A DNA stretch of 64,000 bases from Bacteroidota bacterium (GCA_031408435.1 JANNWM010000047.1:9349-73348), one strand, 5' to 3'. Counted from the first letter of the stretch, positions 49,389 to 53,029 are shown. Notes: generated from the sequence alone by a model not told the origin. Program-made: numbers and translations.

Positions 49389-49739
49389 CTAAAAAAAAAG
49401 ATTTGTAACTTTAATCAAAAATTTGTTTTTAACTAAAGGGAAAATAGTGTGCATTGGTTTTTTCAATTCTTTTAAAACATTATATATTAATAATAGCCAT
49501 AATGAAATTATAAAAATTATATTTCCATAAAGCGGCAATCCAAACTGTAATTTATTTATAAATAATACTGATTTTTGAAACGAAAATTCAAGATTCGAAT
49601 AATCGACCTCTAATAATGGTGTCCAGTTAATGATATAAAAATAAAACATTGCTATGCAAAACGACATCGAAATTGCAAATGCCAAATTCAAAAATATAAA
49701 ACTTAACTTTTCAGAATTTTCGTTTTTTTCGTTTTCCAT
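49389..49739 (-). CDS. 116-aa hypothetical membrane protein, candidate target of the adjacent two-component system
   Basis: Two hydrophobic segments (FIFLNLAFAISMSFCIAMFYFYII and IIFIISLWLLLIY); has its own promoter and the shared box. Confidence 0.6.
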   Translation of the reverse strand: MENEKNENSEKLSFIFLNLAFAISMSFCIAMFYFYIINWTPLLEVDYSNLEFSFQKSVLFINKLQFGLPLYGNIIFIISLWLLLIYNVLKELKKPMHTIFPLVKNKFLIKVTNLFF

Positions 49740-49803
49740 TTGACTTAATTTTGTAATTGAAATGAAAATGGTGCTTTTTATTTCAATTACAAAATTAAGT
49801 CAA
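49740..49803. repeat. 24-bp perfect inverted repeat abutting the 49739 start codon
   Basis: 49740-49763 is the exact reverse complement of 49780-49803. Confidence 0.9.
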
Positions 49804-49850
49804 CTTATAAGAATTGTTTTACAGTTTTACTGTACATTTTGTTAAAGTTT
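49790..49850 (-). promoter_or_regulatory. Putative regulator box plus -7 element, copy 1
   Basis: 34-bp box at 49817-49850, 19-nt gap, TAATTTTG at 49790-49797 on the minus strand. Confidence 0.75.
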
Positions 49851-49882
49851 GATTTGTAGGTATTTTTACCCTTATTCTGGGT

Positions 49883-50557
49883 TTAAATCAAACCTCTTTT
49901 TTTGGCTTCTTTTATAATCTCGTCGTCTGTTCCCTTTTCAAGATTTAGATAAATTCTGATTTGAGTTTTTCTTTTTTGGATTGCGCTTAAAGTAAGATTT
50001 ATGTGTTCAGGCAAATTTTTAGTTTTTACACCTTCGCCAATCAATGCTAAAATTTGTCTATTTAGTTTGCCAAGAAATTTTTCTGGCAGCAACAATTCTC
50101 TCAAAACTTGTTTTACGGTTGCGCTGTAATAAATTTCGCCTTCTAAAATCATTTCGAAAGCTACTAGCAATTCTTCTGCACTAAAATCACTTTTAACAAG
50201 TAATGCGTTTGGATCTAAATTTTTAATTATCTGATACAACAACAAAACTTCGGTGTGCGAAGTCAGAATTGCAATTTTGGTATCAGGCGAATGACTTCTT
50301 AAAATTAAACCTAAATCTTCGCCGTTATTGATGTTTTTTTCAGCAAATATTGGCAAACTATAATCTAAAAAAGCCAAATCGAAATAATTTTTTTTCAATG
50401 GATGAGAAATTATTTCATAGGCATTTTCGCAATTATGTGCCGTTGTAGTTTCTATTTCTAAGCCTAAATAATTGTAATACAATATCAGTTTGTACCCATC
50501 TAACATCGACGGATGGTCGTCGACCATTAATATTTTTATTTGCTTTTTTTCTTCCAT
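49883..50557 (-). CDS. NarL/LuxR family response regulator
   Basis: ILMVDDHP, phosphoacceptor AFLD, ILTSH, LVKS, C-terminal HTH; ATG at 50557 with TATATTTG at 50566-50573. Confidence 0.92.
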   Translation of the reverse strand: MEEKKQIKILMVDDHPSMLDGYKLILYYNYLGLEIETTTAHNCENAYEIISHPLKKNYFDLAFLDYSLPIFAEKNINNGEDLGLILRSHSPDTKIAILTSHTEVLLLYQIIKNLDPNALLVKSDFSAEELLVAFEMILEGEIYYSATVKQVLRELLLPEKFLGKLNRQILALIGEGVKTKNLPEHINLTLSAIQKRKTQIRIYLNLEKGTDDEIIKEAKKRGLI

Positions 50558-50576
50558 AACTGGTACAAATATACAT

Positions 50577-52622
50577 TTATATCGGAAAAACCAAAGACAA
50601 ACAAGTTCCTTTGTCTTTTTTAGAATCAATTTTTAACATTCCAGATATTAAATCTGACCTCGATTTCATGTTTTTAAGACCAATTCCATTTTTGATATTC
50701 AAAACGTCAAAACCTTTACCGTTGTCAGAAACCGAAACAAATACTTGACCATCTGATTGATAAATTTTCAAATTTACATTTTTGGCATTGGCATATTTAT
50801 TAATATTTTGTAAACTTTCCTGAAAAATTCTATACAAATGCATTTTGGTTGTGCTTGCAATATTTTCCCAATTAATTTTGTTGTCAATATCGATTGTATA
50901 TTTCAAATTAGAAATTAAAGCTTGGTTCTGGAACAATTCTTGAATAATTATTTTAAAACTGTCTTTTTCCAAGAAAATATCTTTTGCCAAATCTCGAGAA
51001 ATGGCTTGAATTTCGTTTTCTATTCCTATTATTTTATTTATATGAACCAAGCAATTATCAATAGTTTCCTGATCGTTTCTTTTGCTTAGTACAAACAAAT
51101 TCAACCTAATCGAAGCCAATTTGCCTATTATGCCGTCGTGCAATTCTTGCGAAATTCGTTTTTTTTCAGCATTTCGACCTTCATCAATTTTCGATTGTTG
51201 GTCTAACATTAACTGATATATGGCTTCGTTTGCAATTTGTTGCTCTTTCTCGAACTCTAAAACTTTGTTTCTAGAGTGTTGCATTTTCGTGAAATACAGC
51301 AATCCAGCAAATATTAAAACCAATAAACACGAACCCAAAATAAGCCAACGTTGCGACGAAATTTTATCTTTTTCGATTTCGATTGAGTTTTTTTCGTTAA
51401 GAATTTCGTCGGTTTCAAACTCAATTCTGGCAAATTTGTTTCTGGTTGCCCGCTCGTTGTTTTGCAAACTATCGGTTAGTTTTATAAACCGACTGTTGTA
51501 AATTTCGTTGTTTTTCGGGTCAATTTTCGCCAGTAGTTCCAGCGTTTTTAACTCGTCCTCGAAAATTTTGTTTTCGTGAGCCATTATCTTGGCGTCGTTG
51601 CCAAAAACCAATGCTTTTGCAGTATCTTTTTGATATAAATAATATTCAGAAAGATTTATTTTGCTAGAAACAATACCTGGAATGTTTTTTAGCGAGTCTC
51701 GAATTTTATAAGCCTCGTTTAATTGATTTATGGCAGATATGTCTGCTAGTTTGAATTTTGAATAACCAAGATTGTTGATTAAATTAGCATATAAAAAAGG
51801 TTCAATTTTTTTTGAATTTGATATTTTTAAACCTTTTTCAAAATACGAAATTGCTTTTTTATAACTTTGGTTTTTATTGTATGCAGTTCCTATATAATTG
51901 TAGGTTTGAGATTTTAATGATAAAAATTGAGAATCATTTATTAATTTATCAGAAACTTTTAATGCTTTATTAAAATATTCTAAAGATTTATCAAAATCAT
52001 TCAAACCATCAAGAGCATTTCCTAATGTAATGTAACAATCATAAATTAATCTGTTGTTTTTTTCTTTTAATGCTTTTTTAAGAATATTGATTATTGCTAT
52101 TTCACAACCAGCAAAATCTTTTTCGAATAATAATATATTTGCTTTATAAAGTTGAATTTCGGTTAAGTCAATTTTATATTTTATTTTTTGATAAGTTTTT
52201 TCAGATTTTGTTAAATAAAAATAGGCACTATCATTTTGAAAAATATTATAATGATAATCTCCTAAATATTTTAAACTTTTCGCAATTGAAACAGAATCTT
52301 TGCTCTTTTTAGATAATTTAAATACAATTTCGGAAACATCTTTAAATTTTAAATCCTCGTATAGGTTAAAATACCTGTCGGCTAATTTAAAATAAAGAAT
52401 TCGAGTTAAAGAATCATTTCTTTTTGTTTTTAAAATACCTAAAAGTTGATTTGCCGATTCTTTTCTTAATTTATTATCTGACAATAAATCGTTTGATTCG
52501 AGAAGCAATTTATTAATTTTAGAACTATTTTCTACATTTTTTTTAATCTCGTTTTGACAACTACAAAAGATTACAATCTTTATGAATAATAAAGCAAGAA
52601 TTTTTAAATTTGATGAATTCAT
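50577..52622 (-). CDS. TPR-sensor histidine kinase (HisKA_3 and HATPase_c)
   Basis: N-terminal hydrophobic segment with FCSC, TPR-like repeats, TM helix WLILGSCLLVLIFAGLLYF, H-box ISQELHD, ESLQNI, SDNGKGF, GIGLKNM. Confidence 0.92.
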   Translation of the reverse strand: MNSSNLKILALLFIKIVIFCSCQNEIKKNVENSSKINKLLLESNDLLSDNKLRKESANQLLGILKTKRNDSLTRILYFKLADRYFNLYEDLKFKDVSEIVFKLSKKSKDSVSIAKSLKYLGDYHYNIFQNDSAYFYLTKSEKTYQKIKYKIDLTEIQLYKANILLFEKDFAGCEIAIINILKKALKEKNNRLIYDCYITLGNALDGLNDFDKSLEYFNKALKVSDKLINDSQFLSLKSQTYNYIGTAYNKNQSYKKAISYFEKGLKISNSKKIEPFLYANLINNLGYSKFKLADISAINQLNEAYKIRDSLKNIPGIVSSKINLSEYYLYQKDTAKALVFGNDAKIMAHENKIFEDELKTLELLAKIDPKNNEIYNSRFIKLTDSLQNNERATRNKFARIEFETDEILNEKNSIEIEKDKISSQRWLILGSCLLVLIFAGLLYFTKMQHSRNKVLEFEKEQQIANEAIYQLMLDQQSKIDEGRNAEKKRISQELHDGIIGKLASIRLNLFVLSKRNDQETIDNCLVHINKIIGIENEIQAISRDLAKDIFLEKDSFKIIIQELFQNQALISNLKYTIDIDNKINWENIASTTKMHLYRIFQESLQNINKYANAKNVNLKIYQSDGQVFVSVSDNGKGFDVLNIKNGIGLKNMKSRSDLISGMLKIDSKKDKGTCLSLVFPI

Positions 52623-52667
52623 GTTCAAATTTAACATTTTATTCTTTATAATTCAATTTCAAAAAAA

Positions 52668-52859
52668 TTATATATTTATACCTGGTCTGTCGTTTCTTAT
52701 TGGAGAATTTATTTCGTTTAAATTATTATTCTTATTTAATTCGATACCTGGTCTATCATTTCTAATCGGTGGTTGAATCTCACCACTTCCAACCGAACTA
52801 AAAGCAGTTGTTGACAATAATAATGCGAAAATAGCTAAAGTAGTAGATAATGTTTTCAT
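52668..52859 (-). CDS. 63-aa secreted peptide precursor with a duplicated PIRNDRPGI motif
   Basis: Signal peptide MKTLSTTLAIFALLLSTTAFS; the two repeat copies differ only at synonymous sites; own promoter upstream. Confidence 0.85.
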   Translation of the reverse strand: MKTLSTTLAIFALLLSTTAFSSVGSGEIQPPIRNDRPGIELNKNNNLNEINSPIRNDRPGINI

Positions 52860-52968
52860 AGTTTTAAGTTTTAATTTGTTAAGTTTGTTTGTTTAAGAAT
52901 TTTCTTATGTGAATAATTTTGTTTATAAATAATTGAATTTTTAAATCATTTGCTTTAAATAATTTTGA

Positions 52969-53029
52969 CAAAATTATAACCAGACCAAATTTTTATTTTA
53001 CACTTTTACTATACATTTTGTTAAAGTTT
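52969..53029 (-). promoter_or_regulatory. Putative regulator box plus -7 element, copy 2
   Basis: 34-bp box at 52996-53029 (32 of 34 identical to copy 1), 19-nt gap, TAATTTTG at 52969-52976. Confidence 0.75.

Follow-up and report, generated by a model that had tools for sequence, protein, structure and literature searches.

A stretch of DNA of 64 kb from a freshwater Flavobacterium, hereafter the window, carries four minus-strand genes in a row at 49389-53029. ORF listing gave their order as a 63-aa ORF with a signal peptide, a 686-aa sensor histidine kinase, a NarL-type response regulator and a 116-aa protein with two transmembrane (TM) helices. The first-pass annotation of this DNA had described the same row, and every detail of it, coordinates included, proved to be correct. 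The features of the locus, with the evidence for each, are the following:

49389..49739, minus strand: 116-aa two-TM membrane protein (ORF listing, loci of relatives)
49740..49803: 29-bp inverted repeat, 97% complementary, with a 6-nt loop (repeat search)
49790..49797, minus strand: -7 element TAATTTTG of the second promoter (sequence; spacing identical to the first promoter)
49817..49850, minus strand: box copy 2, 34 nt, upstream of the two-TM gene (pattern search)
49883..50557, minus strand: NarL/FixJ-type response regulator, 224 aa from ATG (Pfam REC, family profile)
50577..52637, minus strand: sensor histidine kinase, 686 aa (Pfam, homologue alignment, AF2 model, structure search)
51680..52030, minus strand: hypervariable sensor patch, kinase aa ~203-320 (comparison with the L084 allele)
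52668..52859, minus strand: 63-aa pre-peptide (ORF listing, repeat search, homologue comparison)
52969..52976, minus strand: -7 element TAATTTTG of the first promoter (sequence, recurring spacing)
52996..53029, minus strand: box copy 1, 34 nt, upstream of the peptide gene (pattern search, conserved in relatives)

The 63-aa product starts with a signal peptide of about aa 1-21, consisting of an N-terminal Lys and a hydrophobic run, as had been claimed for a precursor at this site, and a putative signal peptidase I site can be read by eye after AFS. The mature peptide is hydrophilic and contains two units of the form [E]I[QN][PS]PIRNDRPGI, at aa 27-39 and 49-61, each including the motif PIRNDRPGI. 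These units (EIQPPIRNDRPGI and EINSPIRNDRPGI) form a direct repeat that is also seen at the DNA level. Precursors built from tandem repeats, with 2-5 units each, were found among 17 of 87 peptides, which suggests that the active unit is a short linear motif. Within each precursor all copies vary together, as in PPIRNDRPGI, PPLGPERPRF, EPARRPQIPP and PPAIKNDRPPF, each present twice, and LRPRDPGF, present three times. Comparison with syntenic relatives showed that the mature peptide is the fastest-diverging part of the module, with an identity of 20-42%, compared to 68-91% for the signal peptide, 62-68% for the sensor, 68-76% for the kinase core and 71-81% for the regulator.

The kinase comprises an N-terminal signal or lipobox (..IFCSC, with C27), a TPR superhelix at aa ~40-372, a stalk, a TM helix at aa ~431-452, HisKA_3 and HATPase_c. 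Pfam searches matched TPR_12, TPR_1, TPR_2 and TPR_8 at aa 200-313, HATPase_c at aa 599-685 (41 bits, cut-off 26.4) and, slightly below its cut-off, HisKA_3 at aa 491-530 (23.1 bits, cut-off 24). Most kinase homologs carry a precomputed PF07730 match and the ELHDG motif with H500 is invariant in them; with a HisKA_3 domain bearing the conserved His and followed by HATPase_c, the protein belongs to the HisKA_3 (NarX/DesK/LiaS) class, and its model matches DesK and VraS both by sequence and by structure. In the AF2 model, 18 helices form nine TPR-like pairs over aa 40-372, where pLDDT is above 90, and a single continuous helix, aa 374-519, crosses the membrane. The TPR domain lies between the N-terminal export signal and the only TM helix before the cytoplasmic core and is therefore periplasmic, as had been assumed; the large TPR sensor announced on the N-terminal side of one TM helix was thus recovered both by Pfam and in the model. 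A Foldseek search placed the sensor model closest to the TPR domains of LGN/Pins, which hold extended peptides, to the phi3T Rap protein with its pheromone and to NprR (TM 0.65-0.74). The Rap and NprR matches reached TM 0.65-0.67, with LGN and designed consensus TPRs equal or better, and the likeness of the model is to TPR superhelices in general. Peptide-binding TPR superhelices, the RRNPP receptors to which the sensor had been likened included, are among those that the fold resembles.

Many of the orthologous peptides may be lipid-anchored. Our own regular expression detected a lipobox in 33 of the 87 related peptides, many of which have acidic residues at positions +4 and +5 (C-T-V-E-E, C-S-V-D-E, C-T-A-D-E). 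The lipoprotein export signal of Bacteroidetes, in which a polar or basic residue and two acidic ones at about +3 to +5 come after the lipobox Cys, is C-X-K-(D/E)2 or Q-A-(D/E)2 and, as a pattern match only, the CTVEE-type starts are compatible with this surface-export motif (PMC5080379). The kinase is probably a lipoprotein too, judging from C27, which is kept in at least 90% of 107 homologs. A kinase that senses a periplasm-retained lipopeptide is therefore conceivable, and the peptide could contact the TPR domain only in the periplasm of the cell that produces it, so that the state of the envelope and not cell density would be sensed. The peptide might then inhibit the kinase by feedback, in the manner of CpxP and CpxA, or it might report on lipoprotein or Sec traffic, as NlpE and RcsF do. 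The lack of a dedicated exporter or importer gene in the locus agrees with such a role. We nevertheless consider it improbable, since the Cys has been lost in the clade of the window, where the signal is of the signal peptidase I type and lipid anchoring is therefore dispensable, and since a generic stress reporter would not be expected to diversify its mature motif rapidly or to be made from multi-copy precursors. The peptide of the window has no Cys and the lipobox feature of surface export is absent from this gene.

The regulator consists of a REC domain (Pfam, 33 bits, cut-off 30.2) and a LuxR-type HTH with the recognition helix ..LTLSAIQKRKTQI..; a longer form of the ORF, starting at TTG, reaches 50629. 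Pfam GerE did not score on the single regulator sequence. A profile of the regulator family, positions 2-210, matched full-length VraR (E = 2.9e-14), RcsB, NarL and DesR and aligned with the isolated HTH domains of EsrB, SsrB and NarL, and NCBIfam matches to MctR, UvrY and NarL were full-length, below their cut-offs. The protein is thus a NarL/FixJ regulator over its full length, HTH included, in agreement with its first description.

The same 34-nt box precedes the peptide gene and the gene that follows the regulator. Its pattern has exactly two matches in the 64 kb, compared to 0.00 expected from 100 shuffles. Copy 1 contains the conserved TTTAACA, and its core, GTATAGTAAAAGTGTAA at 52998-53014, is an imperfect palindrome; the core of copy 2 is a perfect 5-5-5 palindrome, TACAG-TAAAA-CTGTA, within 49819-49835. 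In both copies TAATTTTG begins 19 nt past the box; counted from the GTAA of the palindrome, the distance to this -7 element is 21 nt, a spacing that is fixed in related loci. We take TAnnTTTG to be the Bacteroidetes-type -7 promoter element, as in Bacteroides and Flavobacterium promoters. The full pattern (box, 21 nt, TAnnTTT[GA]) occurred 24 times in loci L001-L080, compared to 0.05 expected from shuffles, and the position of the box is kept in syntenic and in distant Flavobacterium loci. The box is therefore a conserved promoter-proximal element, and the common box and promoter geometry proposed for the first and last genes were confirmed. The promoter spans delimited in the first-pass annotation, 52969-53029 and 49790-49850, each cover exactly the box, the -7 element and the DNA between them. 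In RNA-seq data of the F. covae group, contigs over peptide genes start 30-80 nt after the box and none upstream, contig depth being a poor measure. The inverted repeat at 49740..49803 is located between box 2 and the ATG and its 5′ arm includes the -7 element; only L084 shares its long form, other relatives keeping a shorter hairpin.

The letters of the box conserved over the greatest distance are TTTAACA and CGTAA, separated by 16-17 nt of variable spacer. This arrangement resembles ECF promoters, and the box might serve an unlinked regulator as its operator or be a promoter of the ECF-sigma type (AAC-N17-CGTA), in which case it would be uninformative about this two-component system. Such an origin is hard to credit, because a canonical -7 element at a fixed 21 nt downstream would be pointless and no ECF sigma gene is present in the locus. 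Moreover, the core of the box is a 6-5-6 palindrome centred near -42, the spacer is palindromic in 22 of 37 sites, and the centre varies in step on both halves (GG/CC, AG/CT, AC/GT). These classes, only three in number, track whether the recognition helix of the adjacent regulator (..I[EQK]KRK..) has E, Q or K, a covariation that speaks for action of the regulator on both promoters, as had been claimed.

The 116-aa protein is, as described beforehand, a membrane protein, with two TM helices, and its gene is a candidate for the output gene of the module. In 16 related Flavobacterium loci the gene after that of the regulator encodes a protein of the same layout, with 103-124 aa and two TM helices. 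This protein evolves fast, as the peptide does, and one control element is common to both; mature motifs of the Flavobacterium clade (PIRNDRPGI, PPLGPERPRF, DIDPPIPAPKP) are rich in Pro and Arg/Lys, which recalls proline-rich antimicrobial peptides. These features would suit a bacteriocin locus in which the peptide is antimicrobial, the two-TM protein is an immunity factor and the two-component system merely regulates. The motifs of other clades, however, are very unlike these and not rich in Pro (EIGGGNGAKRTLIY, YDLLAHAKTKRIKAQQG, DSPDGDDLPEIED), the two-TM protein is confined to the Flavobacterium subclade whereas the peptide/kinase pair is family-wide, and export or modification genes are absent from the locus, all of which makes this explanation very unlikely.

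Linkage between peptide and kinase genes was scored as the presence of a same-strand signal-peptide ORF of 40-100 aa within 650 nt upstream. Such an ORF preceded 52 of 67 kinase-like ORFs, whereas among the remaining large ORFs of these loci it was present in 9 of 207 cases (Fisher p = 8e-33). With an improved start model, a short signal-peptide ORF was located just upstream of 82 of 101 homologous kinase copies, and a peptide ORF was undetectable in the other 19. A general lack of the peptide gene beside homologous kinases, which the first-pass annotation had named as the outcome that would overturn its proposal, is thus clearly contradicted. Linked loci come from at least 17 named genera, nearly all of them Flavobacteriaceae. 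Where kinase paralogs stand in tandem (L018, L021, L024), every one of them is accompanied by a distinct peptide gene of its own, indicating that modules duplicate as units. The lipoprotein orthologues of the peptide, the frequency of tandem-repeat precursors and the extension of the family far beyond Flavobacterium are observations absent from the first-pass annotation.

The locus of the window was compared to L084, which is 97% identical to it overall. Of the 39 aa changes between the two kinases, 36 fall in the sensor and 29 of these, all at aa 222-313, in a hypervariable patch that covers the TPR repeats scored by Pfam; the mature peptide has three changes and the signal peptide none. Between these two closest alleles the dN/dS of the sensor is 0.23, and dS is also raised in the variable patch, which may therefore be an imported recombination tract and not the result of selection for a new specificity. 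Sensor-specific covariation with the peptide tail was not detectable when peptide-sensor co-variation was checked as had been proposed: the partial Mantel correlation was 0.236 when controlling for the kinase core and 0.219 in the reverse control.

This result would be expected if the peptide were only a product of the regulon, secreted or displayed on the surface. The regulator would then control the peptide and two-TM genes through the box, and the TPR domain would respond to a different signal in the periplasm, for instance misfolded envelope proteins, foreign peptides or a molecule from a host or from prey. The link between box and regulator is the best supported part of the scheme, the role of the peptide as ligand being the part that we infer. 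In addition, in the distant loci L016, L017, L023 and L041 the same box precedes other small secreted Cys-loop proteins, so that the regulon exports several small products, and the ligand of FimS, the one periplasmic-TPR kinase studied in the phylum, is presumed to be environmental (PMC11053733). Still, this explanation does not account for a peptide gene kept directly upstream of nearly every kinase copy in 17 genera while other members of the regulon vary, for the separate peptide gene of each paralogous kinase, or for the tandem multiplication and joint change of the short units, and we regard it as unlikely.

Several known systems share part of this organization. As in ComQXPA of Bacillus subtilis (ComX, ComP, ComA), the gene for an exported peptide neighbours those for a kinase of the HisKA_3 class and a regulator of the NarL type, both peptide and sensor show polymorphism between strains, and the regulator has as its site, presumed in this module, a GC-centred inverted repeat (here TTACGG-N5-CCGTAA; the ComA box is TTGCGG-N4-CCGCAA). 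The module differs from it in the Sec signal peptide of the precursor, in a periplasmic TPR superhelix instead of a polytopic sensor and in a Gram-negative host with an outer membrane. Assignment to this family was rejected, as no ComQ isoprenyl transferase is encoded between the divergent Metallophos gene and rnpA and the mature peptide has no Trp, the residue that is modified in ComX. The RRNPP systems of Bacillota and phages (Rap, NprR, PlcR, PrgX, AimR) likewise have a small Sec-exported propeptide gene adjacent to that of a TPR receptor, as found here, and peptide motifs that diversify quickly. Their receptors, however, are cytoplasmic, fused to an HTH or acting as phosphatases, and need Opp peptide import, whereas the TPR domain of this module lies in the periplasm and serves a histidine kinase as its input domain, which places it outside that class; beyond generic TPR, no sequence homology to RRNPP receptors was detectable.

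ComCDE, BlpRH and Agr also combine a self-encoded peptide with a kinase and a regulator that induces the peptide gene, as the regulator of the window would do, and show allelic 'pherotype' diversity. Their kinases are polytopic HPK10 proteins and their regulators LytTR-type, whereas here the kinase is a single-TM TPR protein of the HisKA_3 type, the regulator is NarL-type and the peptide signal is Sec-type; double-glycine leader, ABC exporter, AgrB and thiolactone are all absent from this locus, which is therefore not of the ComCDE/Blp type. LiaFSR and VraTSR are close in other respects: in the PDB the best matches of the kinase core are VraS/DesK and that of the regulator is VraR, and a small membrane protein, which modulates the kinase in LiaFSR and VraTSR, belongs to the same unit under the same control. 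Sensing by those kinases is intramembrane, however; they have hardly any extracytoplasmic domain and no peptide gene, and the two-TM protein has no detectable similarity to LiaF or VraT. FimS/FimR of Porphyromonas gingivalis is likewise from Bacteroidota and has a periplasmic TPR sensor kinase; its output is fimbriae and, to our knowledge, a cognate peptide gene next to fimS has not been reported. The kinase of the window is not a member of the FimS family (NCBIfam NF053520, 30.2 bits, cut-off 600), as only the TPR/TM region aligns. In FimS the periplasmic sensor has about eight TPR motifs between two membrane anchors, and its ligand is unknown, its authors having guessed a polypeptide (PMC11053733).

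Taken together, we favour, at somewhat better than even odds (about 0.55), a self-regulated module in which the exported peptide is the ligand of the kinase; processing, binding, direction of regulation, co-transcription and autoinduction would proceed as follows. The 63-aa product would be exported by Sec, and removal of the signal would free into the periplasm a hydrophilic peptide of ~41 aa that contains PIRNDRPGI twice; the orthologues of many related species would be lipoproteins with acidic residues at +4/+5, like the surface-export signal of Bacteroidetes. Whole or trimmed, the peptide would be the cognate ligand of the adjacent kinase, docking on the concave face of the periplasmic nine-TPR superhelix. 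The signal would travel through the continuous helix at aa 374-519 to the HisKA_3 DHp domain, and the kinase would phosphorylate the NarL-type regulator, a dimer of which would bind the palindrome TACAG-N5-CTGTA, centred ~42 nt upstream of the presumed start. The palindrome replaces a -33 element, and class-II-type activation would therefore apply. Promoter 1 would drive the peptide gene and, probably by read-through, the kinase and regulator genes, thus generating positive feedback, and promoter 2 would drive the small two-TM protein. Signalling between cells by the peptide is a more doubtful matter, which we hold to be possible rather than probable. Only indirect observations bear on a pheromone that would accumulate outside cells and, at a threshold density, induce its own synthesis: the box ahead of the peptide gene and the fast, joint divergence of the peptide units. 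A peptide of ~1.2-4.5 kDa would not pass porins freely, so that re-entry from outside needs a transporter, none being encoded in the locus, and a lipid anchor, as predicted for many orthologous peptides, would be a poor fit to a diffusible pheromone.

The interpretation given in the first-pass annotation is thus supported in part: the four genes form a single conserved module, and binding of the peptide to the TPR domain, its processing to PIRNDRPGI, activation and not repression, and action between cells are putative parts of that interpretation. No description of such a peptide/TPR-kinase module was found in the literature searched, in line with the earlier statement that no characterised system of this type was known in Flavobacterium. 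The module is real and conserved, as a peptide-linked two-component module it is probably novel and, on computational grounds, the recurrent pairing of a peptide with a TPR kinase suggests a Gram-negative system of peptide signalling that has not yet been described.

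The locus comprises four tightly packed ORFs that, together with the upstream box, occupy positions 49389-53029 on the minus strand:

52668-52859, minus strand: 63-aa peptide precursor
50577-52637, minus strand: 686-aa kinase, starting 30 nt past the 63-aa ORF
49883-50557, minus strand: 224-aa regulator, read from the ATG at 50557 and starting 19 nt past the kinase ORF
49389-49739, minus strand: 116-aa two-TM protein, 143 nt past the regulator ORF

Plus-strand ORFs in 49389-53029 reached at most 93 aa, lay inside the kinase gene and were discarded for want of support. The 63-aa product consists of a Sec-type signal (MKTLSTTLAIFALLLSTTAFS) and a hydrophilic tail (SVGSGEIQPPIRNDRPGIELNKNNNLNEINSPIRNDRPGINI) in which PIRNDRPGI occurs twice; the single repeat unit is EIQPPIRNDRPGI, and a repeat search of the window also detected the duplication at the DNA level. 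Pfam and NCBIfam returned nothing meaningful for the 63-aa peptide or the 116-aa protein. A match of a marine peptide orthologue to the chryseobasin precursor (E = 0.0019; 18.8 bits versus 50) was dismissed as signal-peptide similarity.

Rfam placed no known RNA within the locus; its sole match in the window was a Flavo-1 RNA (RF01705, 22664-22743, plus strand, 75.9 bits versus a gathering score of 42), flanked by ORFs at 22024-22650 (minus) and 22825-24177 (plus). A 6227-aa ORF of the window (25134-43817, plus strand) combines SprB repeats with a C-terminal CHU_C domain for type IX secretion and encodes a SprB-like giant adhesin of gliding motility. A divergent Metallophos phosphoesterase gene (53152-53886, plus strand) adjoins the peptide gene here and in many Flavobacterium loci, and regions upstream of related modules repeatedly contain ..CCTATTACTAATGTTCTCAT, the reverse complement of that gene's start; the chromosomal location of the module is thus a conserved one, as opposed to a mobile island. 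Past rnpA, two genes further downstream, the window encodes an S41 protease of the tail-specific (C-terminal processing) type that carries PDZ domains (47001-48638, minus strand), which, if it is a periplasmic C-terminal processor, could in principle trim the peptide. This neighbourhood is probably coincidental, since the synteny is kept only in the closest relatives (metagenome loci L082, L084, L086 and L087) and is absent from L081, L083 and L085.

The first-pass annotation had observed that the peptide and two-TM genes share a box and a promoter geometry, and this held in full. The 34-nt box pattern AAACTTTAACAAAATGTAYAGTAAAASTGTAAAA had two exact matches in the 64 kb (52996-53029 and 49817-49850), with none expected from 100 shuffles, and TAATTTTG lies 19 nt past the box in both copies. 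Bacteroidetes promoters carry a -7 element of consensus TAnnTTTG, which we take TAATTTTG to be. Neither promoter has a TTTG -33 element at the usual distance; the box sits there instead. A sigma-70 promoter and terminator scan showed no enrichment (30 versus 25 expected), its model not being applicable to Bacteroidetes promoters. The box is found at both positions in the syntenic metagenome loci (L081-L087), and distant Flavobacterium loci carry T[TA]AAC[AT]-N16-[CT]GTAA before the peptide gene and usually also before the gene that follows the regulator. The relaxed pattern with TAnnTTT[GA] exactly 21 nt downstream occurred 24 times in the 870 kb of L001-L080, the best related loci from species-representative genomes, against 0.05 in shuffles.

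The core of the box is a 6-5-6 inverted repeat, TTAC-NN-N5-NN-GTAA, with at most one mismatch in 22 of 37 sites, and it resembles the ComA box of Bacillus, TTGCGG-N4-CCGCAA. Its central dinucleotides vary in concert across both halves.

Centre of the box palindrome and recognition helix of the regulator
ACGG..CCGT: L001-L012, L081, L082, L086 and L087; helix ..S[AS]IEKRK..
ACAG..CTGT: the window and L083-L085; helix ..SAIQKRK..
ACAC..GTGT: L016, L017 and L023; helix ..DTIKKRK..

This covariation, seen in three classes only, is what a regulator dimer that reads the palindrome should produce. If transcription starts a few bases past the -7 element, the palindrome would be centred near -42, the classical position of a class-II activator. 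Alternatively, the box might have nothing to do with the regulator and be, for example, an ECF-type promoter of the form AAC-N17-CGTA. Such a reading does match the most conserved letters of the box, yet we judge it very unlikely, as it leaves the fixed -7 element, the palindromic symmetry and the covariation with the helix without explanation.

Further repeats surround these promoters. A 29-bp near-perfect inverted repeat (49740-49803) precedes the two-TM gene and spans its -7 element, the long form being present only in the closest relative, while the peptide promoter (52950-52985) has an inverted repeat, TTATAATTTTG-N-CAAAATTAT(AA), around its -7 element that is conserved in many species. 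Either may be a second operator or a 5′-UTR structure. In other clades the box precedes not a two-TM gene but either the kinase gene or genes of small, secreted proteins with a Cys loop. In more distant loci, box and -7 geometry stand before genes whose small secreted products contain a Cys-x(5-6)-Cys loop (e.g. ..GKICDIGRGLCTITPP..), at positions 9397 and 11331 of L016, 7213 and 9758 of L017, 8917 and 10735 of L023, and 2440 of L041; these are further candidate members of the regulon.

We then determined how widespread the association of a peptide gene with such a kinase is. A protein search returned 964 kinase homologs at E < 1e-20, mostly from Flavobacterium, and in species-representative genomes at least 519 of 600 pattern-matched stretches were confirmed to encode a kinase relative. 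The best 80 of these confirmed loci were retained. They represent at least 17 genera: Flavobacterium, Cloacibacterium, Winogradskyella, Xanthomarina, Bizionia, Marixanthotalea, Confluentibacter, Mangrovimonas, Psychroserpens, Gelidibacter, Mesoflavibacter, Paucihalobacter, Maribacter, Formosa, Gaetbulibacter, Algibacter and Myroides. Cultured carriers include F. swingsii DSM 21789, F. amnicola LLJ-11 and Winogradskyella ursingii. Almost all of the best 80 loci retain the kinase and regulator pair, and in nearly all a same-strand ORF of 47-92 aa, starting with MK and encoding a signal peptide, lies directly 5′ of the kinase. Such an ORF preceded 52 of 67 kinase-like ORFs and 9 of 207 other ORFs of at least 250 aa in the same loci (odds ratio 76; Fisher p = 8e-33, an overstated value given that the loci are not phylogenetically independent). 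In our comparison of sequences, the real argument for the linkage is its breadth across 17 genera and not the p-value. The first-pass annotation had proposed surveying homologous kinases for adjacent short signal-peptide ORFs and would have given up its circuit if they generally lacked one; with kinase starts set by homology, the ORF was present at 82 of 101 kinase copies, and general absence is clearly not what the family displays.

Copy number varies in both genes. Tandem kinase paralogs each have a distinct peptide gene of their own (L018, L021, L024), and some loci have two or three tandem peptide genes per kinase (L012, L049). The metagenome loci L081-L087, with kinases 61-94% identical to that of the window, mostly keep the order divergent Metallophos gene, peptide, kinase, regulator, two-TM gene; in L087 no peptide ORF precedes the orthologous kinase, and the upstream genes differ. 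In L082 (1-3067) and L087 (1-4914) a second TPR kinase module lies directly upstream of the orthologous one and is followed by different small ORFs, of 85, 129 and 155 aa or of 131, 366, 115 and 135 aa, including one that is Asp_protease_2-like. In L049 (3724-7530, F. covae AL-02-36) three tandem peptide genes encode products with the ends GEPI[LV][RK]PKKPE. This assembly contains two 1-nt frameshifts, at 3982 in the first peptide copy and at 6039 in the kinase, neither of which is present in RNA-seq contigs from related strains; in the contigs of one F. covae-related strain 322 nt are skipped, leaving one tandem peptide copy fewer.

The peptides themselves diverge rapidly. A word-indexed search found four sequence relatives of the window peptide, with a near-constant signal peptide; three carry PPIRNDRPG[IFM] twice and one carries ITPxLRPRDxGFEVNISIDTNN three times. 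Flavobacterium peptides share a C-terminal framework, [DE]-I-x-P-P, 3-6 variable residues and [KR]-P (e.g. DIDPPIPAPKPM, DIDPPTPPTKP, VDPIVKPKQD, EPPIIKPVKP). A second clade is built of 3-5 tandem units, each opening with [DE]IGG (four copies of EIGGGNGAKRTLIY, five of EIGGGQVANRLT, five of IGGNGGNETRKAIE), and peptides of marine genera have tails such as YDLLAHxKxKxxLPTNG or FEYNFEVNRHVKKGxxVPSQG, one of them carrying DSPDGDDLPEIED four times. Internal repeats are clear in 17 of 87 peptides, which points to a short linear motif as the probable functional unit. Several relatives have the same new motif in both repeat copies (EITPPLGPERPRF, EIEPARRPQIPP and DITPPAIKNDRPPF, each twice), and thus the unit appears to evolve in concert. 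Among syntenic loci the mature peptide is the least conserved part of the module.

Identity of the syntenic loci to the window
Mature peptide: 20-42%
Signal peptide: 68-91%
Sensor (periplasmic TPR part of the kinase): 62-68%
Cytoplasmic part of the kinase: 68-76%
Regulator: 71-81%

A lipobox is present in 33 of 87 peptides, many with acidic residues at +4/+5 after the Cys (CTVEE, CSVDE, CTADE). These residues would fit the Bacteroidetes lipoprotein export signal, C-X-K-(D/E)2 or Q-A-(D/E)2 (PMC5080379). The clade of the window peptide has no Cys and a site of the signal peptidase I type, so that lipid anchoring is common yet not essential. A cell-autonomous role of the peptide, comparable to that of CpxP, NlpE or RcsF, has to be weighed alongside these lipidated and unlipidated forms; we hold it improbable.

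In the kinase, Pfam found TPR matches at aa 200-313, HisKA_3 at 491-530 (23.1 bits, cut-off 24) and HATPase_c at 599-685. Cys27, within an S-C lipobox-like motif, is kept in at least 90% of sequences in an alignment of 107 homologs. With this alignment AlphaFold2 gave a mean pLDDT of 82, exceeding 90 across aa 40-372. The predicted fold comprises a hydrophobic N-terminal helix, 18 helices forming nine TPR-like pairs (aa 55-372), an unbroken helix (aa 374-519) that holds the single TM segment (~aa 431-452) and runs on into the DHp, and finally the ATPase domain. Since the ATPase has to lie in the cytoplasm and a single TM helix separates the two domains, the TPR domain is predicted to be periplasmic, exported by way of the N-terminal signal.

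Foldseek searches of the PDB placed the sensor model nearest to the TPR domains of LGN/Pins (TM to target 0.65-0.74), which hold extended partner peptides inside their superhelix, and close to the RRNPP receptors NprR and phi3T Rap with its pheromone (TM 0.65-0.67); the kinase core matched DesK and VraS. This likeness is one of possible mode of action and not of family membership. Among studied proteins FimS of P. gingivalis comes nearest; this kinase has eight TPR motifs in the periplasm, and in 2024 its signal was still unknown and suspected by the authors to be a polypeptide (PMC11053733). The kinase is not a member of the FimS family (30 bits versus a cut-off of 600). Two other candidate relatives were rejected: RgzAB of F. 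johnsoniae is an unorthodox kinase that lacks TPR and is unrelated, and the rhizobial pyruvate system MctS/MctR has only the kinase core in common. As to the regulator, its REC domain scored over the Pfam cut-off, and a profile of 24 orthologs matched full-length VraR (E = 2.9e-14), RcsB, NarL and DesR across both domains, as well as isolated LuxR-type HTH domains.

The last gene encodes a protein with two hydrophobic segments, and a 103-124-aa protein of the same layout follows the regulator in 16 related Flavobacterium loci (among them L001-L004, L006-L008, L012 and L081-L087, although in L081 it was not called as an ORF). From a short N-terminus the layout runs through TM1, a loop of ~30 aa bearing an F..(D/N)GY..IN...G-like motif, and TM2 to a tail. 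This fast-evolving family is narrow, with five clusters among 1.84 billion representatives and a single one by word search. One possibility is that the protein is a LiaF-like modulator of the kinase. That peptide and two-TM protein form a bacteriocin and immunity pair seems to us highly improbable.

We compared the window with L084, its 97%-identical counterpart. Of 39 kinase substitutions, 36 fell in the sensor and 29 of those at aa 222-313, within a patch of ~350 nt with 16-20% divergence; the mature peptide had three changes and the signal peptide none. Between these two closest alleles dN/dS was 0.23 for the sensor and 0.33 for the mature peptide, giving no evidence of positive selection on either. 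Because dS is raised in the variable TPR patch too, selection explains it no better than the import of a tract by recombination. The first-pass annotation had also proposed a test for covariation of peptide and sensor: in a partial Mantel test on 71 peptide-sensor pairs, the peptide tail correlated with the sensor at r = 0.236 when the kinase core was controlled for, and about as strongly with the cytoplasmic domain under the reverse control (0.219). There was thus no sensor-specific covariation at this resolution, which we counted against the peptide being a ligand. The main rival explanation, that the peptide is merely a product of the regulon and the sensor reads another cue, is in our view unlikely, if the most serious of the alternatives.

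The organism of the window was found in DNA metagenomes of freshwater sediment only, with no RNA run containing it. At the homologous F. covae locus L049, RNA-seq contigs from four runs cover the peptide genes and begin at 3781-3833, just past the box (3724-3750) and the -7-like TAATTTCA; none of these runs has a contig upstream, at 3000-3780. As far as contig data go, the starts are compatible with the predicted promoter. Another study of the F. covae group gave one flat, uninformative contig across everything. In three of the four runs contig depth, an unreliable measure, was 147-527 over ~4820-6450 (the sensor-coding part), 5-10 over 6480-7520 (3′ part of the kinase and regulator) and 4-32 over the peptide genes. 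Stability of a 5′ fragment, internal termination or an artefact of assembly could each produce this step.

Taken together, the best reading, to which we give a probability of roughly 55%, is a self-regulated module in which an exported peptide would be the cognate ligand of the adjacent TPR kinase and a NarL-type regulator would act back on the module's own promoters. The case is built from comparative evidence and structural prediction. The link of the regulator to the box and the genetic coupling of peptide to kinase are well supported; binding of the peptide to the kinase, the sign of regulation, peptide processing and the peptide's site of action are inferred, and the peptide may act between cells or inside the periplasm of its producer. 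More tentatively, the module might be a hitherto unrecognised peptide-pheromone system spread throughout the Flavobacteriaceae, in which short linear peptides would derive from precursors that are exported by Sec, frequently multi-copy and in some cases lipidated and exposed at the surface, the periplasmic TPR domain of a dedicated kinase would perceive these peptides, and joint diversification of peptide and TPR repeats would create strain-specific pherotypes, a language of quorum sensing or kin recognition. It would be analogous to that of the Com, Agr and RRNPP systems of Gram-positives, though assembled from other components. Two-component systems that convey peptide signals are textbook knowledge in Gram-positive bacteria and, to our knowledge, almost unknown in Gram-negative ones. 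The known peptide two-component and RRNPP systems have a similar circuit working, yet the module fails the defining features of each; it has a different sensor and belongs to a Gram-negative phylum from which we know of no such system. In the full texts searched, drawn from outside the subscription journals, we came across no account of Bacteroidota in which a peptide gene is coupled to a TPR kinase.

If the peptide is the ligand of the kinase, the abundant TPR kinases of Flavobacteriaceae, now annotated only generically, would gain a ligand class, and the long-open question of which signals FimS-type periplasmic TPR kinases perceive would gain a concrete hypothesis. Multi-copy tandem precursors would be an unusual route to bacterial signals. 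Cognate sets of peptide, receptor, regulator and operator, with natural specificity variants that can be swapped, would then be at hand in cultured strains, among them many type strains of marine origin and the fish pathogens that make up part of the F. columnare/covae group.
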